This document shows, piece by piece, positions 10,903 to 60,282 of a DNA stretch of 64,000 bases. The first letter of the stretch is position 1. Every line of letters begins with the position of its first letter. A program made the translations under genes and the position numbers. The DNA is taken from positions 44,212-108,211 of the forward strand of contig CANOYR010000002.1 of assembly GCA_947571655.1 (NCBI GenBank). Reading direction: 5' to 3'. A model generated the notes under the pieces. That model was not told the DNA's origin and ran no database searches. It was given only the letters and a program-made list of their open reading frames with translations. The DNA is from an uncultured Bacillales bacterium. GTDB lineage: Bacteria; Bacillota_I; Bacilli_A; RF39; UBA660.

Positions 10903-11556
10903 TTAATTACCTCCTTTAGCCTTTTTTGTTGGAAGAATTTCTCCTTTATAAATCCATACTTTGACACCGATTTTTCCAAATGTTGTATCTGCTTCACTGG
11001 TTGCATAATCGATATCTGCTCTTAATGTATGTAGAGGAATTGTTCCTTCTGTATATCCTTCACTACGAGCCATATCTGCTCCACCAAGACGTCCAGATAC
11101 TAATGTTTTAATACCCTTAGCTCCTGATTTCATCGCATTACGAATTGCTCTTTTTTGTGCCATTCTGAATGATGCACGATTCGAAATTTGATTTGCGATT
11201 GAGTTCGCAACAATTTGCGCATTCATATCTGGCTTTTTAATATCTACGATAGAAATACTAATTTCTTCGTTTACTAATTTTGATAATTGTTTTTTTAATT
11301 TTTCAATTGATTCTCCACCACGACCGATGATGACACCTGGTTTTGCAGTGTGAACAATGATTTCTGTTCTTTTAGAATTTCTTTCAACTTGTACTTTGGC
11401 AATAGCTGCATCTTTTAGATTTTTTTCAAAATATTCGCGGATTTTAATGTCATTATTTAATAATCTTGAATAATCTTTTCTATCTGCATACCATTTTGAG
11501 TCCCAGTCCTTGTTGATTCCAAGTCTAAGTCCATTAGGATTCACCTTTTGACCCAT
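10903..11556 (-). CDS. rpsC: 30S ribosomal protein S3
   Basis: KH-domain S3, 217 aa. Confidence 0.95.
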
Positions 11557-11575
11557 GATTTACCCTCCTTTGGTT

Positions 11576-11908
11576 TTATCTAGTAGCCACAACGATTACG
11601 ATGTGACTTGTTCTTTTATCTTTATGTCCAATATGACTACGTGAATCAAACATATGACGTTTTAATACTGGACCAGCATCTACTCTTGCTTCTTTTACAT
11701 AAAGCTCTTCTTGTTTTGCACCATTATTGTTTACTGCATTCGCAGTAGCAGATTCTAAAACTTTCTTTGTAAGACGAGCAGATTTTTTGTTCATATTATT
11801 TAATATTACTAACGCATCGTTAACATCTTTACCACGAATTAAGTCTACTACTAAACGAGCTTTAATAGGTGATACTCTAAGAGTTTTTGCGATTGCTCTT
11901 GCTTCCAT
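11576..11908 (-). CDS. rplV: 50S ribosomal protein L22
   Basis: Canonical L22. Confidence 0.95.
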   Translation of the reverse strand: MEARAIAKTLRVSPIKARLVVDLIRGKDVNDALVILNNMNKKSARLTKKVLESATANAVNNNGAKQEELYVKEARVDAGPVLKRHMFDSRSHIGHKDKRTSHIVIVVATR

Positions 11909-11927
11909 ATTATTCTCCTCCTAGTCA

Positions 11928-12194
11928 CTATTTCTTGTTATCGCCGTGTCCACCAAACTTACGAGTTTGTGAAAATTCTCCAAGTTTGTGTCCTACCATA
12001 TCTTCGGTTACATAAACTGGAATAAATTCTTTTCCGTTATGTACTGCGAATGTATGTCCAATAAATGCAGGATAGATAGTTGAACGACGTGACCATGTTT
12101 TAATGACTTCTTTTTTTCCAGATTCATTTAATTTTTCTACCTTAGCTAATAATCTATCGAATACGTAAGGTTTTTTCTTTAAACTTCTTGCCAT
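11928..12194 (-). CDS. rpsS: 30S ribosomal protein S19
   Basis: [23 protein letters not shown]... canonical S19. Confidence 0.95.
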
Positions 12195-12212
12195 AAATCA
12201 CTCAATCCTTTC

Positions 12213-13043
12213 CTATTTACTATTACGACGACGAACGATAAATTTATCAGACGTTTTTTTCTTTCTAGTTTTATATCCAAGTGCTGGTTTTCCCCAAGGA
12301 GTAACTGGACCTTTACGACCGATTGGCGCACGTCCTTCACCACCACCATGTGGATGATCATTAGGGTTCATAACAGATCCACGTACTGTTGGGCGAATTC
12401 CCATATGACGTTTACGTCCTGCTTTTCCTAATCTTACTAATTCTTGATCTTCATTTCCTACAGCACCGATTGTTGCGTAGCATGTTCCAAGAATTAATCT
12501 TTGCTCTCCGCTAGAGAGTCTTACCATTACATAATTTCCCTCACGTCCTAAGATTTGAGCAGATGCACCAGCACTTCTTGCTAGTTCTCCACCTTTTCCT
12601 GGACGAAGTTCAATATTATGAATCACTGTACCAACAGGAATATTCATAATTGGTAAGGCATTTCCTACTTTGATATCAGCTTTTTCTCCACTTTCAATCT
12701 TATTTCCTACTTTTAAACCTTTTGGAGCGATGATATATCTCTTTTCACCATCGTTATAATTAATTAATGCAATATTTGCAGTTCTATTTGGATCGTATTC
12801 AATCGCAGCTACTGTTCCAGGAATATCGCGCTTATTTCTTTTGAAATCGATAATTCTGTATTTTCTTTTTGCGCCTCCCCCTTGATGTCTTACAGTAATT
12901 TTTCCTTGATTGTTACGACCACCATTTTTCTTTAGGCTAACTATCAAACTTTTTTCTGGAGTCTTTTTTGTAATTTCGCTGTTTACTAAAGTGCTCTTTT
13001 TTCTTTGTCCGTTTGTAATTGGCCTGTAGCTTTTTACTGGCAT
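12213..13043 (-). CDS. rplB: 50S ribosomal protein L2
   Basis: Canonical L2 with conserved HPHGGGEG motif. Confidence 0.95.
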
Positions 13044-45932: not shown

Positions 45933-46834
45933 ACTTTTAAATACTTCCTTACTGCTCGATAACTACCAATCATACCCACAAGCATACCAATCGCTAGTAT
46001 AATTAAGGATACCATGTAAACAAATGGCTCAGGTTTAATTAATTGGATTAGAGGTGAGAATATCTGTCCTCCGAAATGTTTATATAAAGCGTAGTATCCA
46101 TAAATGACGAGAATGATTGGAATAATGGCCCCGAAAATTCCTAATACCATTCCTTCTACTACAAATGGCATTTTTATTGAAAAGTTGCTTGCACCAACTA
46201 CTCGCATAATGGAAATTTCTCTTTTTCTTGAGAAAATCGTCAATTTGATTGTATTAATAATTAAAAATACAGTTACTAAGATTAATAGTACAATCGCTAG
46301 AATAGTGCCTTTTTCTATCATTTTGAATGCAGATAAAAATTTGTTTACCATAGTTTCTCCATAGTTTACAGAGTCAATTCCTTCTATTTTTTCTATCATA
46401 TTCGCAGTTTCTGCGATTTGTTCTATCTCTTTTACCTTGATTTGAAAGGTATCTTTTAATGGATTTTCTGTTTCTTCCCATTCTTTCATTGTTGCTTCTA
46501 ACATACTCGAAGAGGCTTGCATCTCTTCCCTTAATTGTGTTTTGGATTTATAATCAATCGTCGCAATATTTTCCATTTGATCTAGTTTTGCTCGAATGAT
46601 ACCTAGTTCATTTTCTTGGACTTCTCTTTTCACAAATACTACAATTGTTACATCTTCTTTAATGACTTTTGTAAAATTATTCACATTTAAGGATGCCATT
46701 ATTCCAATCGCTACAATAATCAAAGTAATACTAATACAAGAAATAGAGGCTAGAGATAAGGAAAAATTTCGAATTACACTTTTAAAGGCATCTCGAATAC
46801 TTCTAAAAAACATTCTAAATGGCTTCATCATCAT
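45929..46834 (-). CDS. ftsX: cell division permease FtsX
   Basis: 4-TM FtsX topology with large extracellular loop; overlaps ftsE. Confidence 0.85.
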   Translation of the reverse strand: MMMKPFRMFFRSIRDAFKSVIRNFSLSLASISCISITLIIVAIGIMASLNVNNFTKVIKEDVTIVVFVKREVQENELGIIRAKLDQMENIATIDYKSKTQLREEMQASSSMLEATMKEWEETENPLKDTFQIKVKEIEQIAETANMIEKIEGIDSVNYGETMVNKFLSAFKMIEKGTILAIVLLILVTVFLIINTIKLTIFSRKREISIMRVVGASNFSIKMPFVVEGMVLGIFGAIIPIILVIYGYYALYKHFGGQIFSPLIQLIKPEPFVYMVSLIILAIGMLVGMIGSYRAVRKYLKV

Positions 46835-47513
46835 ACTCCCCTTTCTCTACATCCTTTACAAGACGACCTTCTTTTAAGATGACTACTCTTTTTTTCATTC
46901 GATTCACTATTTCTCTATCATGAGTTGCCATTACAACCGTCGTCCCTAAAGTAGTATTAATGGTATTTAATACTTTCATAATTTCAATACTCTTTTCTGG
47001 ATCTAGGTTTCCAGTTGGCTCATCACAAAGAAGGATTTTAGGCTCGTTGACGATTGCCCTTGCAATTGCCACTCTTTGTTGTTCCCCACCAGATAATTGA
47101 TCTGGGTACTGACGTACTTTTCCTTTTAATCCTACGAGTTCTAAAGCACGTAATACTTTTTTGTTAATTTCTTCCCTTGGAGCACCAATTACTTCTAAGG
47201 CAAAGGCAACATTTTCATAAACTGTTGATTTTGTAAGAAGTCGATAGTCTTGGAATACAATTCCCAGTTTTCTTCTTAATTTATAGACCCTACTATTTCG
47301 TAATCTCGCAACATTTAAACCACCTACAATAATTTCCCCCTTTGTAGGCTTTACTTCCCTATATAACATTTTAATTAATGTAGATTTACCACAACCTGTT
47401 CCACCGATGATAAATACAAAGTCTCCTCTTTTTATTTTCAACTCAAGGTCGTAAATTGCCATAACACCATTTTTGTATTGCATACTAACATTTCTTATTC
47501 TTATTAATTCCAT
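46815..47513 (-). CDS. ftsE: cell division ATP-binding protein FtsE
   Basis: ABC ATPase with Walker A GGTGCGKST, signature LSGGEQQR and Walker B. Confidence 0.9.
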   Translation of the reverse strand: MELIRIRNVSMQYKNGVMAIYDLELKIKRGDFVFIIGGTGCGKSTLIKMLYREVKPTKGEIIVGGLNVARLRNSRVYKLRRKLGIVFQDYRLLTKSTVYENVAFALEVIGAPREEINKKVLRALELVGLKGKVRQYPDQLSGGEQQRVAIARAIVNEPKILLCDEPTGNLDPEKSIEIMKVLNTINTTLGTTVVMATHDREIVNRMKKRVVILKEGRLVKDVEKGEYDDEAI

Positions 47514-47680
47514 TTTTTACCACCTTTCTTGTTTACTCTCACCAATATTTTTATATACAGTATTATAACACTTATTTCGACATTTTTATAGCATTTTTAC
47601 AAAAGTAATCAATGCCTTACAAAAGTAATCATTTGATTTGACATTTTTATAGATGAAAATAGTACATAATTTTTTAATAA

Positions 47681-47697
47681 CTTTTTATAAATTCTTA
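47681..47697. repeat. left copy of candidate att core direct repeat (CTTTTTATAAATTCTTA); overlaps the int stop codon
   Basis: 16/17 identity with 57304..57320. Extended similarity of ~25/28 with flanks AATAACTTTTTATAAATTCTTATATGCC versus AATTATCTTTTTATAAGTTCTTAAATGTC. Confidence 0.45.
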
Positions 47698-49011
47698 TAT
47701 GCCACTATAACTTGGTTTTACAAGGGTTTGTGGCTTTTCTTGTTTTGGAAGATTCTCACATATATTCTCATAATTTCTTATATTTTCGCTTTCAAAAGTA
47801 GTAAAAAAGTAGTAAATTTCACTTTTTAATACTCTTTCCATTTCGATCTTTGCTGATTCTGAATTTACGTGTGCGTAGTAACTTAATGTTATAAGAATAT
47901 TAGAGTGTCCCATAATATATTGTAATGCTTTTGGATTCATTCCTGAATTAGCCATTTTAGTACAGAATGTATGCCTTAGGCTATGAGGTGTTGTTTTATG
48001 TGGTAATGATTCTGTGTGGCATTCATTGTATTTAGAAACTAGACCACGAAATACGTTAGCATAATCTCTTGCTATTCTTGGAAGTCCATTTCGATTTAGA
48101 AATACAAAGTTGCTATATTCGTCAATAACAATAGATTTAATATTCTTCCTATTTGCTATAATTCGTTTTAATGCTTGAAAACACTTATCACTCATAGGTA
48201 CTTTTCTAACTCCTGCATCTGTTTTAGGTGTTTCAATGTAATAACCTTGTTTATTTTTTAATAATTGGTGATCGATATTGATTTCACGATTCGTAAAATC
48301 CAAATCTGTTTCTGTTAATCCACACAATTCAGATGCCCTTAAACCTGTTTCAAGAAATACTATTATATCGTCTACATACTTATAATAGATTTTACTATTT
48401 TTCATAAACTCTAATAAGTTATGTTCTTGTAATGGTGTAAGTGGAACTCTAGACTCTGTATCGTCGTCGATTATGTCCTTAAGTTTAAACTTAAATGGAT
48501 TCTTCCTTATGCAGTCGTCTTCTATCGCCATATAAAATATAGCTTTTAAAGACCTTTGATCGTTCTTAATGACTTGATACGGAGTACCCTTTAATTTCAT
48601 TCGTATAGCCCATTCTTTAGCATCTGACGGCTTTACATTCTCAATAGCACATACTCCAAGTTTGTCTTCTTTTAGGGATTTTAAAAGCCTTTCTCGTCCT
48701 ACTTTTGTATTATCTCGTACATTAGAGTGGATTCTGATATATTTCTCGTAAAGATCACAGACAGTCATTTTTTTACCTGTAGAGTCTATTCCATCGAATA
48801 AGTCTTTTTGTAATGCTTCTTCTTTTTCCCTTAATGATAAATCTTCTCTTTTTCCTTTTGGTAATTTATCTAGTGGTGTAAGCTTCCAAGCATACAAAAA
48901 TTTTGGCTTCCCGAAATTATCAATATATTTATAAGCATATCTTCCGTCTTTTCTTTGGCTCTCTCCATTTTGTAGTATACGTCCTTTTTTATCTCTTCTT
49001 TTTTCTGACAT
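47695..49011 (-). CDS. int: tyrosine site-specific integrase (Tn916 Int-like, with N-terminal arm-binding domain)
   Basis: C-terminal catalytic residues (R...HSLRHTF...ILITLSYY with Tyr). N-terminus KKGRILQNGESQRKDGRYAYKY is typical of the ICE/Tn916 Int N-domain. Start placed at MSEKRRD with RBS AAAGGAG. Confidence 0.85.
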   Translation of the reverse strand: MSEKRRDKKGRILQNGESQRKDGRYAYKYIDNFGKPKFLYAWKLTPLDKLPKGKREDLSLREKEEALQKDLFDGIDSTGKKMTVCDLYEKYIRIHSNVRDNTKVGRERLLKSLKEDKLGVCAIENVKPSDAKEWAIRMKLKGTPYQVIKNDQRSLKAIFYMAIEDDCIRKNPFKFKLKDIIDDDTESRVPLTPLQEHNLLEFMKNSKIYYKYVDDIIVFLETGLRASELCGLTETDLDFTNREINIDHQLLKNKQGYYIETPKTDAGVRKVPMSDKCFQALKRIIANRKNIKSIVIDEYSNFVFLNRNGLPRIARDYANVFRGLVSKYNECHTESLPHKTTPHSLRHTFCTKMANSGMNPKALQYIMGHSNILITLSYYAHVNSESAKIEMERVLKSEIYYFFTTFESENIRNYENICENLPKQEKPQTLVKPSYSGI

Positions 49012-49083
49012 ATATTTTGCTCCTTTCAATTAGAAAGAGCCTTGATATGCAATATCATTATATCACAAACAAGGCTCATTTTT

Positions 49084-49308
49084 CTATATCGCATTTAAAG
49101 AATCTATTATTTTTTCTAATTGCTTTCTTTTTATTTGAATTCGATTCCCATTCATTAGCACCCAACTAGAATTGAGATTTGCTTCTGCTAACTTGCGAAG
49201 TTTATTCTCGCCTATACGAAAATACTTTGATGCCTCTTCAATAGTAAGTGTATATTTTTCACTTATAGGAACATCATTGTTATTTGATCTATAAAATTCT
49301 TTTTGCAT
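49084..49308 (-). CDS. xis: excisionase / small HTH DNA-binding protein (Xis-like)
   Basis: 74 aa immediately upstream of int; MerR-like HTH ([20 protein letters not shown]). Start placed at the second Met for RBS spacing. Confidence 0.65.
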
Positions 49309-49336
49309 TAGAACCATTTCCTTTCATTTTAAAATT

Positions 49337-50335
49337 TTAATCATAATCAGAATTTAAGTAAGAAAATTCTCTGTATTCTTCCATAGTCATTTCTTTTGTT
49401 AAGAATTTGTCATTTTCCTTATAGTGGTAGACTATAAGATTTATTCTTCTTTTTAATTGATCGTAAGTATCACTTTTAAATAAATACATTTGTTTATATA
49501 ATACATCAGGTGGAAATATACTTGTTATATGTACTTCATTCCAAAGGCAAAAACTATTAGTGTAGCGACTATGAATCTGTGTTTTATAGCCCTCTATCAT
49601 AGTCAGAAGTAAGGTATAAGGTAGGCTTTCACTTCGTAGCTCATCCATAAAGAGTATAGGTTCTCCATTATATTTGTCTATAAAACCATTCGTATATTCA
49701 CTTACTCTGTAAATATTTTCTTCTCCATATTCTTCGGCTAATTTTATGTATGTATAACTTTTACCTGTCCCAGCCTTTCCATAATGCCAATATACTCTGA
49801 CATCTCTTTTAGGTGGAGTTTCTTTATATCTTTTTCGGTAGTATGCATCTTTAGTAATTTTTTCAAATTTTCTATATGCAAGTGATATATCAAAAATTTC
49901 ATTCGGAGTTAGACCTTGTTCGATCAATTCTTCGATAGCTTCTATGTCGTTTCGTTTTCCTTGCTTTCCTTGGATATCTCCACAATATTTTATTAAAAGT
50001 ACTTTTTCGCCTTTTTCTTCATATTTCCCACGTTTGTTTATGTAATCGTCTGCCTGTTGCTTATTTCCTTTTGTAGGCTGAATATTCATACCATTAAATA
50101 GCTTTTTGATCCCAGAGAATCTAATGCTTTTCTTATCTTCTAGTACACAATGTAGGTGTTTTAATCCCTTTGCTGAAATGCAATAAGCAACTGCACAGGT
50201 TCTTTGTGGATTATCTTTAGTCCATATTTCGATAACTTTATCTACTATTTCTTCTGGTGTACCCTCGAATCCGTGTAATTCAGGATTATTAAATTCGCAA
50301 AACCAAGATTTACTAGGCTCATTTTTAAATTCCAT
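49337..50335 (-). CDS. rep: replication initiator / relaxase-like Rep with N-terminal HUH endonuclease motifs and C-terminal SF3 helicase
   Basis: Motif I-like FCEFNN, motif II HLHCVL, motif III YINKRGK. SF3 Walker A GKAGTGKS, Walker B ILFMDEL and motif C LWNEVHITS. RBS AAGGAGG. Confidence 0.65.
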   Translation of the reverse strand: MEFKNEPSKSWFCEFNNPELHGFEGTPEEIVDKVIEIWTKDNPQRTCAVAYCISAKGLKHLHCVLEDKKSIRFSGIKKLFNGMNIQPTKGNKQQADDYINKRGKYEEKGEKVLLIKYCGDIQGKQGKRNDIEAIEELIEQGLTPNEIFDISLAYRKFEKITKDAYYRKRYKETPPKRDVRVYWHYGKAGTGKSYTYIKLAEEYGEENIYRVSEYTNGFIDKYNGEPILFMDELRSESLPYTLLLTMIEGYKTQIHSRYTNSFCLWNEVHITSIFPPDVLYKQMYLFKSDTYDQLKRRINLIVYHYKENDKFLTKEMTMEEYREFSYLNSDYD

Positions 50336-50480
50336 AGTGTTTTAACCTCCTTGTATCAACATTAGATACATCGTTTTTTTTTGATTTTTCAACGATTCAT
50401 TAGCAATTTGTATCTGTATCGAAGTCGGGGGCAATGCTAACCCCTCCTTTACGGTGGCTTTCGCTACGCTTCGCCACCGT
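50336..50480. other. structured GC-rich intergenic region between the FtsK-like and Rep genes (candidate oriT / nick site / dso)
   Basis: Hairpins CATCGTT...AACGAT, GGGGG...CCCCTCC and CGGTGGC-N14-GCCACCG (overlapping the 3' end of the upstream ORF). This island stands out in an otherwise ~25% GC element. Confidence 0.4.
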
Positions 50481-51234
50481 CTATTGGTTTTGATAATGCT
50501 TCTATACAAATTTCTTTTATACGTTCCATATCATTAACTTGTCCTATTTTGATAAAGTGTAGATCAGCACTCTGTAATAAAACTGCACCCTCGCCACGAT
50601 TAAATTCTTTCTTTTTTATTTGTTCCAAATGATCGGGCATAAGCATTTCATATATCGATTTCCCAACACCTAAAATTATAACTATTCCATAATTTAATCT
50701 CGATCCAACAGGGAAAGCCACAGCATCAGGTCGCTGACAAGAGCATACAAGCCTTATAGATTTAGACCTACCCATTAAAAGTATTTCGCTAACATCATTC
50801 ATAACTTTTTTAGCCCTTGTTTTATCTTCATTCATAAGAGCAAGTATATTTGCCATATATTCGTCCCATATAAAAGTGATAGGGTGGCGTGTCTTGTCTT
50901 TTCCTGACATTCTATCATTTAACCTATTGTGAACTATTTCCAATAACTCCGTTGTTTGTTTGAAAGAACGATAACGGGGAGTGCCACGCAAACATTCGAA
51001 CATATCGTCAGCTTTGTAATCGGCAAAATAGTATTCCCCTGACGGATCAGCCAAAATTAGCTTTGTTAGTAACCCGAATTCAGCAAATGACTTACCCGAT
51101 CCACTCATTCCCGATAATAGAATATGGGAATTTGTTCGTGGCGAAATATCAACATTTATTTCTTTTTTAATTCCAAAGTTTTTCCAATATTCCAAATCAT
51201 AGCCCAAAGTTAAGGTATTACTAGATTCTGTCAT
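50464..51234 (-). CDS. FtsK/SpoIIIE/TcpA-family DNA translocase ATPase domain protein (coupling-protein-like)
   Basis: Walker A GMSGSGKS and a downstream FtsK-like motor region. It has its own RBS AAAGGAGAA and ATG, overlapping the upstream membrane ORF by 14 nt. Confidence 0.65.
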   Translation of the reverse strand: MTESSNTLTLGYDLEYWKNFGIKKEINVDISPRTNSHILLSGMSGSGKSFAEFGLLTKLILADPSGEYYFADYKADDMFECLRGTPRYRSFKQTTELLEIVHNRLNDRMSGKDKTRHPITFIWDEYMANILALMNEDKTRAKKVMNDVSEILLMGRSKSIRLVCSCQRPDAVAFPVGSRLNYGIVIILGVGKSIYEMLMPDHLEQIKKKEFNRGEGAVLLQSADLHFIKIGQVNDMERIKEICIEALSKPIDGGEA

Positions 51235-51811
51235 CTTTTAATTCTCCTTTTGATTTAATACTTTTCTTTAAAATAAAATCAAAGTATATATATTCTTGAT
51301 CACTTTCTATTTTATCTATAATCTTGATTCCTAATTTTTGTTCTATATCTGTTCTTTTTTCTTCGTATTTAGATTCTGAAAAATCAGGAGAATAAAACTT
51401 AAAAGTGTTAATATTATTGTTAATATTGCATCTTCTTTTAAATTTTGAAACATAAATAGGTACTTTGTGATCTTCTTTTATATTGAGAACATCTTTTACG
51501 TCGTCTTCTATTTTTTTTGCTTTTTTAGGCTTTCCAAACCACGTTATAATACCAAAGGTAAAAATACCAAAAATTAACCAAAATAGAATGTAGACTAATA
51601 ATTTAAAAATATTCTTATAACTACTTGGATCATAAATAAGAATCCAAAGAAGTATTGCAATGATTATATAGAGTGAAAATATTATAAATTTTAGCTTTTT
51701 TGAAAATAGTTCTTTTATACCTTGCTTAAATCTTAATTCATTTACTTTTTGATTTCTTCTTCTGATTTGTCTTTCTTCAAAACTTAATTTATTTTGTACT
51801 TGATTCTTCAT
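51221..51811 (-). CDS. membrane protein (2 TM) likely corresponding to the N-terminal membrane anchor of an FtsK/TcpA-like protein, encoded separately
   Basis: Two TM helices followed by a Lys-rich linker. Combined length with the next ORF (196+256 aa) matches TcpA/Orf21-like proteins. Confidence 0.5.
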   Translation of the reverse strand: MKNQVQNKLSFEERQIRRRNQKVNELRFKQGIKELFSKKLKFIIFSLYIIIAILLWILIYDPSSYKNIFKLLVYILFWLIFGIFTFGIITWFGKPKKAKKIEDDVKDVLNIKEDHKVPIYVSKFKRRCNINNNINTFKFYSPDFSESKYEEKRTDIEQKLGIKIIDKIESDQEYIYFDFILKKSIKSKGELKDDRI

Positions 51812-52118
51812 ACATCTTCTCCTTTAATGCTTCCAACAGATCAGGCGATAAATCTAACTTATCAATAGAATCTGTTAAGCTATATTCTATTTTATCTATA
51901 TATGTAATGCCGATTTCTTCTTTTGCTAAAGCTAACCAAACTTCTCCCGTATCTGAATAAAAAATTTGAGCTATTTCGTTATAATTCAATATGTCATTAT
52001 CGTATATGCTGATAGTGGTATAATATTTATTAAATATAAATATGTAGTAGTCGTCATTTAACGTTATAGTTTTGTTCTTGTTTAGATCAAAAACTTCTTT
52101 TAATTGTAATAGATTCAT
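51789..52118 (-). CDS. hypothetical protein (109 aa)
   Basis: ORF with RBS AAAAGGAGAAG; overlaps the downstream gene by 23 nt; no family recognised. Confidence 0.45.
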   Translation of the reverse strand: MNLLQLKEVFDLNKNKTITLNDDYYIFIFNKYYTTISIYDNDILNYNEIAQIFYSDTGEVWLALAKEEIGITYIDKIEYSLTDSIDKLDLSPDLLEALKEKMYEESSTK

Positions 52119-52197
52119 AATTCTTCTCCTTTTAAAAATTAGTTACAGGTAGGGTGTAGCTATAAACTACACCACCTGTATACACTTTAATTTTGCA

Positions 52198-52488
52198 TTA
52201 TTTTTTGCTTGTTTCGGTAGAGCCAACGAATTCTATAAGACTAACATTTCCGTATCTATCGTAATGAAATTCTTCTACATCTCTGCCTACAAGACTTTTA
52301 ATTTCTAACGTAGTTAATTCTTTGCCAAAAGTTTTTGTTAAGACATTATACTTTACTTTAACTATTGAAACCTTAAGTCCTTCGCTTTTATCGTTATTGC
52401 CGAACTCTTCTGCACAATGAAGATTAACATTATGAAATGGATTATCTTCATATACGCCAATTCTTTCTTCAATACCTACAATTTTCAT
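52198..52488 (-). CDS. hypothetical protein (96 aa)
   Basis: ORF with RBS AAAGGAGAATAAAG; no family recognised. Confidence 0.45.
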   Translation of the reverse strand: MKIVGIEERIGVYEDNPFHNVNLHCAEEFGNNDKSEGLKVSIVKVKYNVLTKTFGKELTTLEIKSLVGRDVEEFHYDRYGNVSLIEFVGSTETSKK

Positions 52489-52585
52489 AGACTTTATTCT
52501 CCTTTCTTTAGATTTTTAAATGTTGTCGAACGATTCTCTCGCTGACACTATAGTTATAGGCGATTGTATATTTGGCTGAAAAATA

Positions 52586-52614
52586 AAGGTGTATAAATGA
52601 TACACCCTTTTTTT
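52586..52614. terminator. bidirectional terminator downstream of the sigma factor gene
   Basis: GGTGTA-TAAATGA-TACACC stem with flanking A/T runs. Confidence 0.6.
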
Positions 52615-52698
52615 ACATACAAAAAAAAGCCGTATTTTACTACAGCTTCTATTAAAATCAATAAATCAAAATACTATGATAAATAATTATTTTTTATT

Positions 52699-53973
52699 TT
52701 AGTTTTTCTTTTGTTCTTGTTTTTTCTTGCTCTTCTTTTTAGCCTGTGGATAAATATTTAAAAAATCTTTTTCTTCAATACCTAATAATTCTAATACTTT
52801 ATTACAATATTCAATAGGATATCCATTTAATTTCTCCAGAACAAAGGCATATGCAAGATGCGTCCTATTATTTTTTTTAAAACTATATCCAGCTGTATCT
52901 AGAAGTGCATTTATAGTATGACTTGATAATTTGAAGTATATACCAAAAGATACCATTGCTTTTATACTTGGTATTGCTCCCTTAGTTTTATAATATTTAA
53001 ACGTCTCTTCACTTAAATTTGTTGCTCTGCAAAACATTGATTCAGTTATATCTTTTTGTTCACAAATATTTTTAAATTGTTCTTCGAAAGTTGGATATCT
53101 TAAATTTATTGCATATTCTTCTTGAAATCTTGTTGATATATCTTTAAAGTTTTTTTCTTCTAATTTTTCATAATCTTCATATTTAGCAATTTTTTCAGTC
53201 TTTGCAGATATATCAATATTTCTCTTTTGTTTTTCAATAATATCTTTCAATAAACGATCTGTTTTTCCATTAGTTATATTATGATATTCGTCAGATTCAT
53301 AAAAATCATTAAGTTTATTGTTAATATTTTCTACTATTTTCTTAATTTTAACTCTATTAACTCCAAGCTTTTTTGCTATATTTGTATCATTCATTTCTTC
53401 TTTGTATTTAAATGTATAAATAAGTTTTTCGTGAGGATATAAAGTTTTAAAAAAAGCCTCTTTTATTAGCTGAATATCTTTTTTGTTTTCATTATCTATT
53501 GTTTGTTCTTCAGGTGTCATAGAGTTATCAGCAATAACATCAGAAAGAGTAGCATCACTTTCACTATCAATAGTACTTTCTAATGAGATATTTTGTTGTG
53601 ATAATGTTTTCAATTCAACTAATTTCTCTAATGGTATTTCTAATCTATCAGCAACCTCTTTATCAGTAGGATCACGTTTTAACTCTTGTGTTAATTCGTT
53701 TTCTACTTTTTTCATTTTATTTATTCGTTTGCTATTATAATTTGAAATACCTTTTGTTTCAGCAATATAATCTTCAATTTCCCATTTGATCCAAGGGGTG
53801 GCAAGTGTAGATATTTTAGTTCCTTTGCTTTCATCAAATTTTTCTGATGCTATCCAAAGACCATATCTTCCATAGTGTAATAAATCTTCAAATGGTACAC
53901 CATTTCCTATATATTTTTTAGCAATACTTTTAACTAACCACTCATTTTCGTTTAATATTCTTTCTTCTTCCAC
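52699..53973 (-). CDS. sigma-70 family RNA polymerase sigma factor with ~180-aa C-terminal extension (possible second HTH)
   Basis: Region 2 (DLLHYGRYGLWIASEKFDESKG), region 4 HTH (TNIAKKLGVNRVKIKK). GTG start with RBS AAGGTGGGA. C-terminal 180 aa not sigma-like. Confidence 0.65.
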   Translation of the reverse strand: MEEERILNENEWLVKSIAKKYIGNGVPFEDLLHYGRYGLWIASEKFDESKGTKISTLATPWIKWEIEDYIAETKGISNYNSKRINKMKKVENELTQELKRDPTDKEVADRLEIPLEKLVELKTLSQQNISLESTIDSESDATLSDVIADNSMTPEEQTIDNENKKDIQLIKEAFFKTLYPHEKLIYTFKYKEEMNDTNIAKKLGVNRVKIKKIVENINNKLNDFYESDEYHNITNGKTDRLLKDIIEKQKRNIDISAKTEKIAKYEDYEKLEEKNFKDISTRFQEEYAINLRYPTFEEQFKNICEQKDITESMFCRATNLSEETFKYYKTKGAIPSIKAMVSFGIYFKLSSHTINALLDTAGYSFKKNNRTHLAYAFVLEKLNGYPIEYCNKVLELLGIEEKDFLNIYPQAKKKSKKKQEQKKN

Positions 53974-54117
53974 ACAAATCCCACCTTATTTAATAATATT
54001 ATTTAACTACACAATATAAAATTTCCAATATAATTATACCATTTTTAGCCTGTTTAATATATAGTAAAACAAAAAATAATTTTGGATCATAAATTATATT
54101 CCAAAATTATTATGTTT

Positions 54118-54396
54118 TTATGCTCTGTTATTTTTATTAAGATATTTTTTATATATAGTATTTATCAACAAGTAGATACCATATAAGATTATTGAATACA
54201 ATAAACCACCGAAAACAATTATACATAAAAACATAGGATAATCATAGTTAATACCTTTTACTACTATTTCTAGTGGATTATTAGGTATTATGAAAGATAG
54301 TATACAAATTACTACAAAACCTATAACACCTAAAATTTTAAATATTTTTTCTAACATAAATTTCAACTCCTTTATTTCAAAAAATAAAAGTAGCAT
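54118..54396 (-). CDS. small membrane protein (92 aa, 3 TM)
   Basis: Hydrophobic ORF between the sigma factor and sortase genes. Confidence 0.4.
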   Translation of the reverse strand: MLLLFFEIKELKFMLEKIFKILGVIGFVVICILSFIIPNNPLEIVVKGINYDYPMFLCIIVFGGLLYSIILYGIYLLINTIYKKYLNKNNRA

Positions 54397-54452
54397 CTAA
54401 AATCTTTTAAAACTTTATAGATACTACTTTTCGTTTTAAATCATTTTATAGA

Positions 54453-55202
54453 TTATTCTAAATTTTCAACTCTTTTTGCGTGTACGACTTTTCTTTTAGA
54501 TGTTCCACCTGTACCCGAGCAAGTGGAAAGTGTAAGTATATTATCACTTGTAGATACTTCTATATCAAACTTTTTATAACTTCTTCTTGTAATGGTATCA
54601 ATAAATTTATTGAAATCACTATCACTTTTAAATGAAGTAGTTATATAATATTCTTCTTTTTCTATAATGTAATAACTAAATATTTGATAAGTCAAAAGTT
54701 CATTATCTTTATTGTATATTTGAATATAGTTATTTTCCTTTTTATCAAAAAATTCATTTTTAAATATATCTTGTAATGATCCAAACATAGTGTCGTCTAA
54801 CATTGAATGACCGAATAATACAACATTTCTATCATTAAAAGATTCATTTCGATAATCCATAAATATTGTTCCTGCCTGATTACTTTCTTTTTCAAAGGAA
54901 CGTTTAAGATAATATGAATTGTCTTTTGTATGTACAATAGGGTTGTTTATTTTATCTTGATTAAATCGTATCCAACCAATAGTATCACTATTGATAGATA
55001 ATAGTTTTTCAAAATCAATTTTAAATACTTCTTTTTCTTCTTCTATATCTATACTAATAACATTTTGGATCAATTCTTTTGTATCATTTTTATTTTTGTT
55101 AGAATCTAATAGGAATAATACAATTTTAGTAGTAGAGAATAGGAACACTACTATAAATAAAATTAGTAGAATATTTTTTGTTTTAAATTTTATTTTTTTC
55201 AT
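54453..55202 (-). CDS. srtB: class B sortase
   Basis: N-terminal TM, catalytic His (NVVLFGHSM), TLSTC active-site Cys motif and conserved Arg (KRKVVHAKR). Confidence 0.75.
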   Translation of the reverse strand: MKKIKFKTKNILLILFIVVFLFSTTKIVLFLLDSNKNKNDTKELIQNVISIDIEEEKEVFKIDFEKLLSINSDTIGWIRFNQDKINNPIVHTKDNSYYLKRSFEKESNQAGTIFMDYRNESFNDRNVVLFGHSMLDDTMFGSLQDIFKNEFFDKKENNYIQIYNKDNELLTYQIFSYYIIEKEEYYITTSFKSDSDFNKFIDTITRRSYKKFDIEVSTSDNILTLSTCSGTGGTSKRKVVHAKRVENLE

Positions 55203-55227
55203 TACTTTAAATAGAAAGAAATAGCAA

Positions 55228-56469
55228 CTAGGCTATTTCCTTTTTCTTCTTACTAACTAGAATATAAGTAATTCCTACTAAAGATCCAAGAGCTAATATA
55301 GAATATAATACAATGTCTATAGAAGAAGTTTGAGCATTGTTTGGTGCTTTATTTACGTTTTCAGTAGTAATAGTTTCATTATCACTTAAAGCTATCATAA
55401 ATGGAGAAAGCTCACTAACTGATATTTCTGCTTTTCCGTCTGTTATTGCTGTTTTAAATATTTCATAAGTATTGTCTTTCTTTTTATGTAATATTTGAAC
55501 TTCCTTACCATTGTAATTACTTCCAAGATTAAATGATATTTTCATATTGTTAGTAGTTGTTCCATAAGCTGTTAATTCATAACAACCTAAAATATTTTTA
55601 AAACCTTTACTTTCTAATTCTTTTGCCATAGTTTTGTAAATTTCGTCATCAGTTTCTAATTTAGCCATATTAACAGGTGTTCCATTTTCTAATGTTGTTC
55701 CATAAGCACCCATATTCATAATATGTTTTATATCATATAGAACATTATTTTTATAGAAGTATAAAATATATCCAACTCCCCAAGGTGTTCCTCCACCTAT
55801 GCCACCAACACCAGTTGTACCTTTAATAGTTATAGAACTATCATTGAATAGTTTATTGAAATTGTATGTATTTTCAGTCCATTTACTAGCATTTTCTTCG
55901 TCACCTATATTATACATTGTAAAAACTGCGTCCGTACCTTCAAAATTTGCAAACTTAATATTATTTACTGCATTTTTAATATATGTTGCATCTTGTTCAC
56001 TATAAGCACTTTCTTTAGCATATTTGATAGTGAATTCTTTTCCATAATTTGATCCGTTTATTCCAATACTTCCATTGTCAATAAATCCAATTCCACCACC
56101 TAAATCACAACCTGTTAAAAATTCAGAAGTGGATACATTAGTTATTCCATTTTGATTAAATATTTCCATAAACTTTTCTTCTAATGCTTTTTGAACAATA
56201 TCTTCTTCATCTGTTTGAAAATTTGTTCTTGTAATATAATTTGCATATTCTGTTTTAGTGATATTTATTTCAATAGTATTTGGAATAATGTTGTTTAATT
56301 CTTCCTCTGTTAAGTCTTTTAAACTTTTTGTTGTAGTAGTTTCTTGTGCTACTTGATTTGTTTGACTTTCGCTAGGTGTAGGTGTAAGTTCTTCTGCATT
56401 AACTGTCATAGTAAAAAACATACTAGATATTGCTAGTGCTGATAATAAAATTTTACTTGTTTTCTTCAT
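55228..56469 (-). CDS. secreted cell-wall-anchored surface protein with noncanonical C-terminal sorting signal (NAQTS + TM + KKKK tail)
   Basis: Signal peptide MKKTSKILLSALAISSMFFTMTVNA. C-terminal NNAQTSS followed by a hydrophobic segment and SKKKKEIA; sits adjacent to the class B sortase. Confidence 0.6.
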   Translation of the reverse strand: MKKTSKILLSALAISSMFFTMTVNAEELTPTPSESQTNQVAQETTTTKSLKDLTEEELNNIIPNTIEINITKTEYANYITRTNFQTDEEDIVQKALEEKFMEIFNQNGITNVSTSEFLTGCDLGGGIGFIDNGSIGINGSNYGKEFTIKYAKESAYSEQDATYIKNAVNNIKFANFEGTDAVFTMYNIGDEENASKWTENTYNFNKLFNDSSITIKGTTGVGGIGGGTPWGVGYILYFYKNNVLYDIKHIMNMGAYGTTLENGTPVNMAKLETDDEIYKTMAKELESKGFKNILGCYELTAYGTTTNNMKISFNLGSNYNGKEVQILHKKKDNTYEIFKTAITDGKAEISVSELSPFMIALSDNETITTENVNKAPNNAQTSSIDIVLYSILALGSLVGITYILVSKKKKEIA

Positions 56470-56548
56470 TTTTTATCTTCCTTTCTAACATATAAAATTT
56501 TTATTTATATAATAAATATTCGTAAAGAATATTATTACCATAAAATAA

Positions 56549-56653
56549 GGAACACTATAAACTTCCTTTGTGTTCCGATACTGCTATTGTTGGATTAACT
56601 GCATACTGCTCCCAACAATATTACAACACCGGTTATAGACACTTCACTAACCG
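56549..56653. other. cluster of three distinct GC-rich stem-loops in the divergent intergenic region between the surface-protein gene and the XRE gene (candidate sso/oriT or small RNA)
   Basis: GGAACAC-N14-GTGTTCC, ATTGTTGG-N18-CCAACAAT and CGGTTA-N12-TAACCG, with no T-runs; locally high GC. Confidence 0.35.
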
Positions 56654-56790
56654 ATAATAAGATTCTACCACTTTTATTTTATATAGTCAACATTTTTACT
56701 GATATTTTATCAGTTTATAATCAATACTAATTTTAGTGATAATAGTTCATAATAAAATAGAAGTTAGTTCTATAAAAAAGGAGTGGTGTT

Positions 56791-57099
56791 ATGAGAGTTA
56801 AACAAACAGAAGAAGACAAAATAATTTTAAAAATAATTGGCAATAATATCAAATTTTATAGAATAAATAATAATTGTTCAAGTGAAAATACAGACGAATA
56901 TGGAAGAATCAGTCAAGAAAAACTAGCCGAATTATCAGGAACTAGTGCATCTATGATCGCCAATTTAGAAGCAACTAATGTTATGCAAACTATGAGCATT
57001 GTTCTTTTGAGAAAAATTGCACTTGCTTTAAATATTCCTTTATATGCTTTCTTTTTAGAAAAGCCAATTAAAAATCCACCAATAAATCCTTTTGAATAA
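56791..57099 (+). CDS. XRE-family HTH transcriptional regulator
   Basis: HTH_3 (KLAELSGTSASMIANLE), 102 aa, RBS GGAGTGG. Confidence 0.7.
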   Translation: MRVKQTEEDKIILKIIGNNIKFYRINNNCSSENTDEYGRISQEKLAELSGTSASMIANLEATNVMQTMSIVLLRKIALALNIPLYAFFLEKPIKNPPINPFE

Positions 57100-57104
57100 A
57101 AAAA

Positions 57105-57137
57105 GAAAACGATTAGTAAATTACTAGTCGTTTTACT
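57105..57137 (+). terminator. terminator downstream of the XRE gene
   Basis: ACGATTAGTAA...TTACTAGTCGT stem followed by TTTACTTT. Confidence 0.5.
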
Positions 57138-57303
57138 TTGCATTATATTTTTAATTGCATACCTAGGCTCTTTGTTAAAAATCTTTATAAAGTAGTAAAT
57201 TAGTAGTAAATTCACTACTGTTTTATTGATTTATGCCTTATAATAAAGGCTTTTTTGGTTATTTATACTTTTTTTAGTCAAAAATAGTGTAATTTTTAAT
57301 TAT

Positions 57304-57320
57304 CTTTTTATAAGTTCTTA
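57304..57320. repeat. right copy of candidate att core direct repeat (CTTTTTATAAGTTCTTA)
   Basis: See the left copy. Preceded inside the element by a tandem AGTAGTAAATT direct repeat (57192..57216), possible arm-type sites. Confidence 0.45.
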
Positions 57321-57370
57321 AATGTCATTATAACCTCGTATAATGTAGTTAAGATATTTTTATTTTAAAA

Positions 57371-57407: not shown

Positions 57408-58325
57408 TTATGCTCCTCCTGAAACTTGGTAAGAATCTGTTACGATAAAGAATGCATCTTTATCAATTTCTTTGATTCCTTCTTTTAATTTATAATATTC
57501 TCTATTAGGAATTACGGTCATTAAAACTCTTCTTTTCTTTTGTAAAAATCCACCTTTTACATCGAAAATTGTAACCCCATGATGAAGCTCATTGATAATA
57601 TAATCTTTAATCTCTTCTTCTCTAGAAGTCATAATATGAAGACATTTATTCTTTGAAATACCAATTAACACACGATCTAGTACCAAACTATATATATATA
57701 AAATGATGGCAGCATACATTACCATATTCCAACCAAAGGCAGCTCCTCCAAAGAAAACAATGATCATATTCATAGCAAAGCTCACTCCTGAAATTGGTGT
57801 TTTTTTGTACTTAGAAATAATTTCACTAATAATAGAGATTCCTCCATTACTGAATCCAACTTTGTATACTAATCCTGTTGTTACTCCCGATAATACTCCT
57901 ATAAAGATAGATATTAAAATTTTATCTGATAAATCAACAGGAATCCAAGTACCAATTTGTGAGGTTAATTCAATAAAAAACGGATATATAATGGTAGAAA
58001 CTACAGCCCCTGAAGTTTTTTCAATTCCAAGAAAAATTGCCCCAATTACTAATAAGGAAACTGATATTAAGAAAATGATAATAGATGGATTGATATTAAA
58101 ATAGTGATTTAAAATAATTGAGATTCCAGAGCTTCCTCCTGTTACAATTTGTGTAGGTAGTTGTAATAGATTAAAGTAACAAGCTGATATAAATAAAGAT
58201 AAGATTAATATCATATATCGACGAATTAGTTTTTTCTTTTTGATTGTATCTAATATGTTGATTGTACTTTCTTTTCCTTTTTCTAATATGTCCATATTAT
58301 TCTCCTCCAAATACTTCATAAGCAT
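57408..58325 (-). CDS. YitT/DUF161 family membrane protein with DUF2179-like C-terminal domain (paralog 1)
   Basis: 5-6 TM helices plus a C-terminal soluble domain (GHGVTIFDVKGG...); tandem paralog of the next gene. Confidence 0.7.
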   Translation of the reverse strand: MLMKYLEENNMDILEKGKESTINILDTIKKKKLIRRYMILILSLFISACYFNLLQLPTQIVTGGSSGISIILNHYFNINPSIIIFLISVSLLVIGAIFLGIEKTSGAVVSTIIYPFFIELTSQIGTWIPVDLSDKILISIFIGVLSGVTTGLVYKVGFSNGGISIISEIISKYKKTPISGVSFAMNMIIVFFGGAAFGWNMVMYAAIILYIYSLVLDRVLIGISKNKCLHIMTSREEEIKDYIINELHHGVTIFDVKGGFLQKKRRVLMTVIPNREYYKLKEGIKEIDKDAFFIVTDSYQVSGGA

Positions 58326-59205: not shown

Positions 59206-60282
59206 GCCTCAATGAATTGATCTATCTCTCCATCTAAAACTTTTGTAACGTTACTTGTTTCATAATTGGTTCGATGATCTTTTACCATAGAATAGGGATG
59301 CATTACATAACTTCGAATTTGAGAGCCAAATTCAATATTTTGATATTTTCCTTTGACTTTGTTTAATTCTTGTTCTTTTTTTTCTTGTTCTAAAACATAG
59401 AGTTTCGCTTTTAGCATTTTCATCGCTTGCTCTTTGTTTTGAATCTGACTTCGTTCATTTTGACAGGTTACAACAATTTTGGTCGGTAAATGAGTAATTC
59501 GAACAGCACTATCTGTTGTATTGACCCCTTGTCCTCCACATCCACTCGAACGATAAACGTCTATTTTTAAATCTTTTTCATTAATTTCTACATTTATAGT
59601 ATTATCAAATTCTGGAATTATATCAATAGAAGCGAAAGAAGTGTGTCTTTTGTTCGCCGCATCAAATGGGGACAGTCGAACTAACCGATGAACACCTTTT
59701 TCAAATTTTAAATAACCATAGGCGTTTGTTCCAGTTACCCGAATGGAGGCACTTTTGATTCCTGCTTCCTCTCCATCTAAATAATCAATAATTTCTGTTT
59801 TATACCCTTTTTTCTCGCAATATCTTAAGTACATTCGATATAGCATCATGGCCCAATCACAGGCTTCTGTCCCACCAGCTCCTGAGTGCACTTCTAAAAT
59901 GCAATTATTTTTATCATATGGTCCATTTAGTAAAAGTAAGACGGATAGTTTTTCAAGTTTTTGCTGAATCTCTTTTGCTATTCCTTCAATTTCCTGTTCT
60001 AACAATTCATCTTTTTCATTCATTAAGAGTTCTAACATCTCAATATTATTTTGGTTTTCTTCTTTTAGTTGAACTAACTCGGCAATCTCTTTTCTTAATG
60101 TGTTTATTTCTGACAGAATTTTATCGGCTTCATTTTTATTATTCCAAAAATCAGGCTCATTCATTTGATTTTCTTTTTGTTTCAATTGCTCTTGTTTATT
60201 ATCAACGTCAAAGTGACCTCCATAAGTCGTTAATTTCTTTTTGATTTTCTTCTAGTATCTTTTTTAACTCATTTCTTTCCAT
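59187..60282 (-). CDS. prfB: peptide chain release factor 2, with programmed +1 ribosomal frameshift (join 60211..60282 and 59187..60209 on minus strand)
   Basis: Frame 0: ATG at 60282 encodes MERNELKKILEENQKEINDLWRSL then in-frame TGA. Classical shift site TGG AGG TCA CTT TGA C with SD-like GGAGG. The +1 frame continues DVDNKQEQ... into the 332-aa ORF containing the SPF, GGQ and methylated-Q region. Confidence 0.85.

Follow-up and report, generated by a model that had tools for sequence, protein, structure and literature searches.

What lies between yitT and ftsE in an uncultured Bacillales bacterium, and does this DNA move? The locus is on contig CANOYR010000002.1 (assembly GCA_947571655.1), of which a stretch of 64,000 nt, hereafter the window, was analysed, and element coordinates follow the numbering of this window. 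An original prediction, made from the sequence alone, placed an insertion of about 9.6 kb within the block prfB-yitT-yitT/ftsE-ftsX-M23 peptidase and assigned it to the integrative mobilizable elements (IMEs). The flanks are as it stated, with prfB and two yitT genes on one side and ftsE, ftsX and an M23 peptidase gene on the other, and alignment of empty and occupied sites gives an integrated element of 9,620 bp (47650–57269), which is probably a 9.6-kb IME or, put differently, a pCRESS1-type rolling-circle plasmid in integrated form. Twelve genes, eleven of them on the minus strand, are found between the second yitT paralogue (57408–58325) and ftsE (46815–47513), a gene for an XRE-family regulator being the sole one on the plus strand.

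Three metagenome contigs (L001–L003), retrieved by an exact look-up of the YitT protein, which is identical in all of them, contain the empty site that the original prediction had proposed to look for, where yitT is directly followed by ftsE with a spacer of 269 nt and the flanks are nearly identical to those of the window. At least six contigs found by a look-up of FtsE (L005–L010) are occupied, containing the element or its int end 182 nt upstream of ftsE, and L005 has an essentially identical copy of the element; the site is polymorphic, being empty or filled among near-identical strains. A sister element adjoins recG in L021, a contig of a metagenome-assembled genome (MAG) of an uncultured Bacilli bacterium. 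Its termini are homologous at both ends, its int, xis, rep and sigma products share 91%, 100%, 98% and 80% identity, respectively, with those of the window, and it has no sortase module. Because empty and occupied sites occur in near-identical strains and the same ends recur at a second locus, the element is integrated and mobile, and it possesses its own integration and excision module with defined ends.

The limits 47650–57269 follow from the alignment of empty and occupied sites, which fixes both junctions. The empty site reads GACA-TTTTTT-AGTC, while the left junction on the ftsE side reads GACA-TTTTTA/TAGATG and the right junction on the yitT side reads ...TTATTTATACT/TTTTTT-AGTC (the slash marks the junction). 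The following features define the two ends:

47644–47649, no strand: left coupling (overlap) sequence TTTTTA, where the empty site has TTTTTT (occupied/empty alignment)
47650–47716, minus strand: Int-proximal terminus and probable core-type Int binding region, resembling the host target on the yitT side (repeat and L021 end)
57257–57275, no strand: far element terminus GGTTATTTATACT with the right coupling sequence TTTTTT at 57270–57275 (site alignment and comparison with L021)

The coupling sequences flanking the element are thus 6 bp each, similar yet non-identical. The original prediction was right about the element and misplaced its ends (47681–57320), as these were set by an imperfect direct repeat of 50 nt (82% identical, 47667–47716 and 57290–57339); the true junctions are 30–50 bp away. 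The int-proximal 65 nt are part of the element, since the sister copy in L021 ends in the same way although its locus is another one. Judged from these alignments, it is the host target by yitT that resembles the element end, not the reverse. Such resemblance is typical of target choice in the Tn916 family, and it could reflect target choice by similarity or be the scar of an earlier related insertion.

The integration and excision module comprises two genes and two clusters of repeats:

47695–49011, minus strand: tyrosine integrase (Int) of the Tn916/Tn1549 type, 438 amino acids (aa) from its ATG (PF02920, 2e-32; PF00589, 1e-34)
49084–49317, minus strand: excisionase of the Tn916-Xis family (PF09035, 1.7e-16)
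47798–47818, plus strand: arm-type repeats GTAGTAAAAA and GTAGTAAATT near the int end (repeat search)
57113–57218, plus strand: far-end arm-type repeats TTAGTAAATT, two copies of GTAGTAAATT and inverted GTAGTGAATT, kept in L021

Residues 82–394 of Int match the PDB entries 6en0/6emz (named 'Int protein', E = 2e-132), a crystallised integrase which we take to be that of Tn1549, while the N-terminus matches the DNA-binding domain of Tn916 Int (1bb8, E = 9e-27) and scores 111 bits with PF02920. The catalytic residues R (TGLRASE), HxxR (HSLRH), H (GHS) and Y (YYAH) all align with 6en0, so that both the arm-binding domain and the catalytic residues of the Tn916/Tn1549 family are present. Each end of the element has GTAGTAAATT copies clustered in its outermost 170 bp or so; these are conserved in L021 and presumably resemble the DR2 site of Tn916, the sequence of which a literature check did not retrieve. 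The module shares with Tn916 and Tn1549 the arm-binding domain, a catalytic domain very near to that of 6en0/6emz, the Xis family, arm repeats at both ends, and an AT-rich target resembling the element end with non-identical coupling sequences, L021 providing a second insertion site. However, it is attached here to a 9.6-kb element without conjugation genes, whereas Tn916 and Tn1549 are integrative conjugative elements (ICEs) of 18–34 kb. As had been claimed, type IV secretion system (T4SS) genes are absent: none of the 12 element proteins matches VirB4, VirB6 or a peptidoglycan-hydrolase T4SS family, and the complete T4SS of a Tn916-superfamily ICE (VirB4-like ATPase, channel proteins and cell-wall hydrolase) is not found in the 9.6 kb, in keeping with an IME, which has no mating-pore genes of its own. 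Excision is predicted to yield the attP junction ...GTACTATTTTCATCTA joined across 5–7 nt to AGTATAAATAACC... and the repaired attB GACATTTTTTAGTC.

In the core of the element, the genes for the OB-fold protein, the coupling ATPase, Rep, Xis and Int follow one another in this order. Upstream of xis and int, its DNA-processing part consists of:

49337–50335, minus strand: Rep of the pCRESS1 group, an HUH endonuclease with SF3 helicase that may serve as replication initiator and relaxase (PF00910 and weak PF02407)
50352–50450, minus strand: candidate origin of replication or transfer (ori/oriT), with a conserved and covarying hairpin at 50421–50450 and loop TTAGCATTGC
50464–51234, minus strand: TcpA-like ATPase of the FtsK/SpoIIIE family, 256 aa, motor half of a split coupling protein
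51221–51811, minus strand: membrane protein with two transmembrane segments, 196 aa, N-terminal anchor and linker half of the coupling protein (matches one-piece FtsK_SpoIIIE proteins)
51789–52118, minus strand: 109-aa protein without family match, 92% identical in L021 and 44% in L022, conserved in the closest relatives only
52198–52488, minus strand: 96-aa OB-fold protein, probably binding single-stranded DNA (ssDNA), in the HelP/SSB-like slot (SSB, ssDNA-binding protein)
52585–52650, minus strand: pair of terminator-like hairpins in tandem, separating the DNA-processing operon from the sigma gene

Rep combines an N-terminal HUH domain with a C-terminal SF3 helicase and is nearest to pCRESS1 members, an assignment based on pairwise identities to three members of that clade; it shares 49% identity over its full length with CUO23215.1 (E = 3e-107) and 35% with the ButMB-E1 Rep (WP_026524352.1), and it also matches the Rep of PDB entry 9pqq (E = 3e-8). 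In an alignment of 21 relatives all motifs are intact, namely motif I, H60-L-H62, Y98-x-x-K101 (Y-I-N-K), Walker A, Walker B and the RR finger. Motif C (VHITSIF) is without the conserved asparagine, which is a trait of pCRESS1 according to the supplementary note of Kazlauskas et al. (PMC6668415). A capsid gene and a small ssDNA genome, as in the CRESS-DNA viruses, are not seen here: no element protein matches a capsid or structural family, and the element is integrated double-stranded DNA (dsDNA). Three IMG/VR contigs of 4,821 bp (L072), 3,800 bp (L074) and 3,696 bp (L075) have terminal direct overlaps of 99, 46 and 48 nt, respectively, which are consistent with circular molecules; each encodes just a pCRESS1-like Rep (51–54% identical), a protein of about 295 aa resembling recombinases, a small helix-turn-helix (HTH) protein and one unknown. 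All three appear to be minimal relatives of the element.

Among the intergenic regions, the 128-nt spacer between the ATPase gene and rep alone is conserved in all relatives, and it contains the hairpin of the candidate origin. In relatives the loop is TTAGTATTAC, which includes the circovirus/nanovirus nonanucleotide TAGTATTAC, while the window has the variant TAGCATTGC (50431–50439, just upstream of rep), where the nick, as in CRESS viruses, would be expected between 50433 and 50432, i.e. TAGCATT/GC (the slash marks the nick). Tandem iterons GATACA GATACA follow at 50409–50420, and an inverted iteron pair (50352–50370) adjoins the ribosome-binding site of rep. The hairpin, TAGTATTAC and iterons are found together in at least 25 relative loci, the two tandem repeats of 6–7 nt directly after the hairpin being lineage-specific (GTTACA, GATACA, GTAACCA, TGTCACA, TAATACA, GGGACA and others). 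In a set of 18 sequences, pairing in the 10-bp stem reached 95%, and compensatory changes affected 8 of 10 pairs; no shuffle out of 500 did as well, and slid controls gave 46–63%. Rep with intact HUH-SF3 motifs thus adjoins an upstream hairpin and iterons, as a relaxase candidate related to rolling-circle replication (RCR) initiators would. The arrangement resembles the circovirus/nanovirus origin in its GC-rich hairpin, the loop of which contains TAGTATTAC (without deviation in most relatives), in the tandem 6–7-nt iterons directly flanking the 3' arm and in its position just upstream of rep on the rep-sense strand, and differs in belonging to a bacterial dsDNA integrative element without capsid gene and, in the window copy, in the variant TAGCATTGC and a weaker stem. 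A circovirus-type origin is mentioned nowhere in PMC6668415, be it main text or supplements, and a literature search found no paper linking pCRESS elements to TAGTATTAC. That the hairpin (TAGTATTAC, here TAGCATTGC) is a true oriT, which would make the CRESS-type Rep a conjugative relaxase, can be put forward only tentatively. The 5' arm of the weakened hairpin (50421–50450, minus strand) reads AAAGGAGGGG and is itself similar to a ribosome-binding site.

The original prediction also listed three small unknown genes in this region. Those for 96 aa and 109 aa are conserved, while the open reading frame (ORF) of 55 aa (50342–50509, minus strand) covers both the hairpin and the iterons of the origin and is unlikely to be a gene, as its apparent conservation is explained by the conserved DNA signals. 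The 96-aa protein occupies the position of the '2k5d-like SSB' of pCRESS elements; 2K5D is Orf22 of Tn916 and homologous to HelP, and ICEs typically have the order (helP)-helP-conQ-nicK (PMC3542172). No sequence-level link between the 96-aa protein and HelP was found, so its HelP-like role is suggested by position and fold.

The coupling protein is divided between two genes, and the separate ORF for the membrane anchor, noted originally, is a conserved trait. The 196-aa protein matches approximately residues 1–170 of one-piece FtsK_SpoIIIE proteins of 423–442 aa, the C-terminal halves of which are FtsK_SpoIIIE domains aligning to the profile of the ATPase (hhalign 97%, E = 5e-11). The catalytic motifs of the ATPase are intact and the motor is TcpA-like in structure; the element encodes the FtsK-like coupling protein of TcpA type expected of an IME. 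The two-transmembrane gene always adjoins the ATPase gene, with overlapping ends, and these two overlapping genes are located upstream of rep in L013–L018, L021, L022, L042 and L065, while a single fused coupling gene (423–434 aa) is found downstream of rep in L046, L048, L050 and L052 from Oscillospiraceae and Lachnospiraceae (about 11100–12380 of 21-kb loci). A frameshift origin of the split is ruled out by more than 350 stand-alone ATPase homologues of 245–280 aa and by the retention of the two-gene layout at 52–83% identity. As both layouts exist within the Rep family, the division into anchor and motor is, on this comparative evidence, a conserved gene fission, and it offers a natural way to tell the roles of the two halves apart.

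The assignment to IMEs made in the original prediction agrees with published architectures (PMC5357655, PMC6668415), and the element belongs to an already described class of compact IMEs or pCRESS integrated plasmids, which is widespread and little studied. Streptococcal IMEs have the compact order tcpA-relaxase-xis-int with RCR-type relaxases, including those of PF00910 and PF02407 types, and their RCR-type initiators are strictly tied to TcpA-type coupling proteins (Coluzzi et al. 2017, PMC5357655). The IMEs with Rel_PF01719-PF00910 or Rel_PF02407 share with the element this order of coupling protein, relaxase candidate, xis and tyrosine int, a relaxase candidate akin to viral and plasmid RCR initiators with SF3 (PF00910) helicase, an FtsK-like TcpA coupling protein, the lack of T4SS genes and the exchange of integration modules between elements. 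They differ from it in host, which is here an uncultured low-GC Bacilli-like gut bacterium, in the coupling protein, here in two genes, in the integrase, here of the arm-binding Tn916/Tn1549 type, in the sigma and sortase/adhesin cargo, and in the target, which is here an intergenic T-run and not the 3' end of a conserved gene. The pCRESS1 integrated plasmids (for example ButMB-E1 and StrOra-E1; Kazlauskas et al. 2019, PMC6668415) have similar Reps with motif C lacking asparagine, FtsK-like ATPases, a small protein described as '2k5d-like SSB', a tyrosine integrase and sometimes a sigma factor, but differ in integrase type and cargo, and their origin is not described in that paper, whereas hairpin, nonanucleotide and iterons are defined here.

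The helP-conQ-nicK module of ICEBs1 and Tn916, in which ICEBs1 uses one nick for both replication and transfer (Thomas et al. 2013, PMC3542172), has the same order of OB-fold protein, FtsK-like coupling protein, origin and nickase. However, the nickase here, an HUH-SF3 Rep of CRESS type, brings its own helicase, whereas the Rep_trans relaxase of ICEBs1 borrows host PcrA, and the OB-fold protein here has no detectable sequence similarity to HelP. The actinomycete integrative and conjugative elements (AICEs) of pSAM2 type also have the rep-xis-int order and a single FtsK-family ATPase without T4SS, but they belong to another phylum, their TraB, clt and spd functions were not detected here, and the nickase origin of the element is of ssDNA type. 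The AICE-like resemblance suggested originally comes down to a generic FtsK fold, since the NCBIfam TraB model (NF041214) gives 22.7 bits against a cut-off of 800 and spd-like genes are not found among the element proteins. Within its class, the element has a Tn1549-like integration module, a split coupling protein and its own cargo set.

The cargo half lies between the DNA-processing operon and the yitT side. The lower GC content that had been pointed out holds for the element (27.7% against 31.6% in the remaining window), and it is mainly due to this half (25.1%; core half 30.1%), which contains:

52699–53973, minus strand: sigma-70 family factor (r2–r4) with a C-terminal extension of about 190 aa (PF04542, PF04539)
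54118–54396, minus strand: 92-aa membrane protein upstream of the sigma gene (ORF only, no family match; upstream DNA conserved with L014)
54453–55202, minus strand: class B sortase, srtB (TIGR03064, 201.6 bits against a cut-off of 153.75)
55228–56469, minus strand: secreted surface protein, 413 aa, with C-terminal NAQTS, hydrophobic segment and KKKK tail
56470–56660, minus strand: strongly structured leader preceding the surface-protein gene (folding energy -43.9 kcal/mol, z -4.1; none of 200 shuffles equally stable)
56791–57099, plus strand: XRE-family HTH regulator, divergent (PF12844, PF01381)

With these, all genes named in the original prediction (Int, Xis, Rep, ATPase, sigma factor, sortase, surface protein and XRE regulator) are present and intact with family support. 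The sigma factor matches the RpoD C-terminal model TIGR02393 (3e-38) over residues 4–223, and the extra residues thereafter show no convincing domain, the best match being a weak Cro/C1-type HTH signal (HTH_26, E = 0.097); full-length homologues including the extension are encoded in L014 (57%) and L021 (80%). The sortase has the motifs LFGH and TLSTC, matches SrtB from B. anthracis (PDB 1rz2, E = 7e-41) and belongs to class B, with the equivalog model, the catalytic His, Cys and Arg and an adjacent substrate containing a sorting signal. In L022 a surface-protein homologue (52% identical, NAQTS conserved) is encoded beside a 66%-identical sortase. The leader of about 190 nt ends in a terminator-like hairpin (GGAACAC...GTGTTCC) followed by a U-rich stretch and may be an attenuator; it is not conserved in L022, and an Rfam search of the region including it gave no match at E values up to 0.1. 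No signature of defence-system cargo was detected, PADLOC giving generic sigma-domain and HTH similarities only.

Close relatives (Rep 78–85% identical) retain the four-gene core of OB protein, transmembrane protein, ATPase and Rep, while their recombinases differ, being a large serine recombinase in L013–L016 and L022 and another tyrosine integrase in L017 and L018. The fusion with a sigma factor and a sortase/adhesin module, originally regarded as unusual, is not so in this comparison: sigma factors are listed among the genes of pCRESS elements (PMC6668415), the sigma module recurs in L014 and L021 and the sortase with its surface protein in L022. As each recurs separately in relatives, the two are, from their distribution, independent and swappable accessory modules. 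L022 (JAISIT010000147.1; Rep 81%, sortase/adhesin, large serine recombinase) is filed under a MAG of Candidatus Methanoflexus mossambicus, earlier Methanobrevibacter sp., so that either the binning is wrong or a methanogen harbours an IME of bacterial type. Outside the element, prfB has a programmed +1 frameshift site of the classical form, CTT TGA C after the Shine-Dalgarno-like GGAGG (60207–60222, minus strand), and its actual start codon, the ATG at 60281, lies upstream of the listed ORF of 332 aa.

Read as a mobilizable element, the locus suggests the following cycle. The Tn916/Tn1549-type Int, guided by the arm-type repeats and aided by Xis, would make a staggered cut of about 6 bp in the T-run and release a circle; the difference between the coupling sequences (TTTTTA and TTTTTT) would follow from the tolerance of this type of Int for non-identical overlaps. 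Rep would bind the GATACA iterons on the circle, nick the loop in TAGCATT/GC and remain attached via Tyr98, while its SF3 helicase and the OB-fold protein would unwind and coat the strand for rolling-circle replication of the excised form. The two-piece TcpA-like ATPase (anchor and motor) would then pass the Rep-ssDNA complex to the T4SS of a co-resident element of the Tn916 or ICEBs1 type. Expression would be controlled by the XRE repressor and the element sigma factor, and sortase B with the NAQTS-anchored surface protein would be exchangeable cargo altering the host cell surface.

Several observations weigh against this reading. A scan of JGI metagenome contigs with the pattern TACTATTTTMAT-N6-14-GTATAAATAACC did not find a circular attP junction. 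Its single match (L070) resembles the element in neither protein nor DNA and arose by chance in AT-rich sequence, and L071, considered as an excised circle for its 21-nt terminal repeat, is merely a sub-segment of contig L019 and not independent evidence. A helper conjugative element or T4SS gene is not visible in the 64-kb window, as judged by ORF sizes only, and to our knowledge no HUH-SF3 Rep has been shown to have relaxase activity. The hairpin stem is weakened in the window lineage (4 bp, a 2-nt internal mismatch and 3 bp, against 8–15 bp in relatives), and the nonanucleotide differs at two positions, one of which is the base 3' of the predicted nick. Kazlauskas et al. take the FtsK-like protein as a DNA segregation ATPase and name such elements integrated plasmids (PMC6668415). 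In a reading of this kind the element would only excise and replicate, with Rep as a pure initiator, the FtsK-like pair segregating or resolving copies at division, and spread by transformation or transduction. Many Rep relatives without a detectable FtsK-like gene, the minimal circular relatives of 3.7–4.8 kb, with no genes beyond those for Rep, a recombinase and one or two small proteins, and the lack of a visible helper in the window agree with this. Nevertheless it is unlikely, as the gene order fits helP-conQ-nicK transfer modules, RCR-type initiators of streptococcal IMEs are strictly paired with TcpA-type coupling proteins, and the family extends across Bacilli, Lachnospiraceae, Oscillospiraceae and others with swapped integrases, which fits frequent transfer between cells. 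The changes in stem and nonanucleotide might instead indicate a decaying remnant that, whether or not it can still excise, has lost replication and transfer. This is quite improbable, since all ORFs are intact, as are the catalytic motifs of Int, Rep and ATPase, the disruption of which the original prediction had named as a sign of remnants; moreover, a near-identical copy exists in L005 and the site is polymorphic among strains. Three distant relatives (L036, L049 and L053) likewise have the loop TTAGCATTGC, there on perfect 10-bp stems and with iterons, so the variant looks like an alternative specificity and not decay, and L022, with the same internal mismatch, keeps the apical 4-bp stem by a double compensatory change (GTGG/CCAC against GGGG/CCCC).

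Transfer without any T4SS would represent AICE-like single-motor conjugation in unicellular low-GC Gram-positive bacteria: the membrane-anchored two-gene motor, a hexamer, would itself export a Rep-nicked or double-stranded circle to a neighbouring cell, in the manner of TraB in AICEs, and the adhesin, where present, would aid contact. The rep-xis-int order with a single FtsK-like motor recalls pSAM2-type AICEs, the NCBIfam TraB model gives a weak match (E = 3e-5), and an adhesin and a sortase are aboard. It is very improbable, however, as that match is far below the model cut-off, the adhesin and sortase are absent from most close relatives retaining the motor (L013–L017 and L021), which places them outside the core transfer machine, and an HUH nickase with a hairpin origin implies processing of ssDNA, not the pumping of dsDNA by a TraB-type motor; we also know of no T4SS-free single-motor transfer system in unicellular Firmicutes. 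Hardly credible is a phage satellite or phage-related island packaged in capsids: some relatives are filed in IMG/VR, Int, Xis, XRE repressor and sigma factor are also typical of satellites, and the sigma factor matches the phage family phrog_351, but the element proteins include no terminase, capsid, portal or packaging functions and the DNA-processing module is of conjugative type. The element is thus best regarded as a probable IME, or integrated pCRESS1-type plasmid.

For the family, the locus provides an unusually clean natural experiment, with empty and filled sites in the same species and a sister copy at another locus, and the predicted nick site is exact and testable for IMEs with oriT unknown. 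The most interesting by-product of the analysis is the family-wide circovirus-type origin: pCRESS1 bacterial elements share the origin design of circoviruses and nanoviruses, with hairpin, TAGTATTAC and adjacent tandem iterons, and this likeness strengthens the proposal that the modules by which CRESS-DNA viruses replicate descend from bacterial elements.

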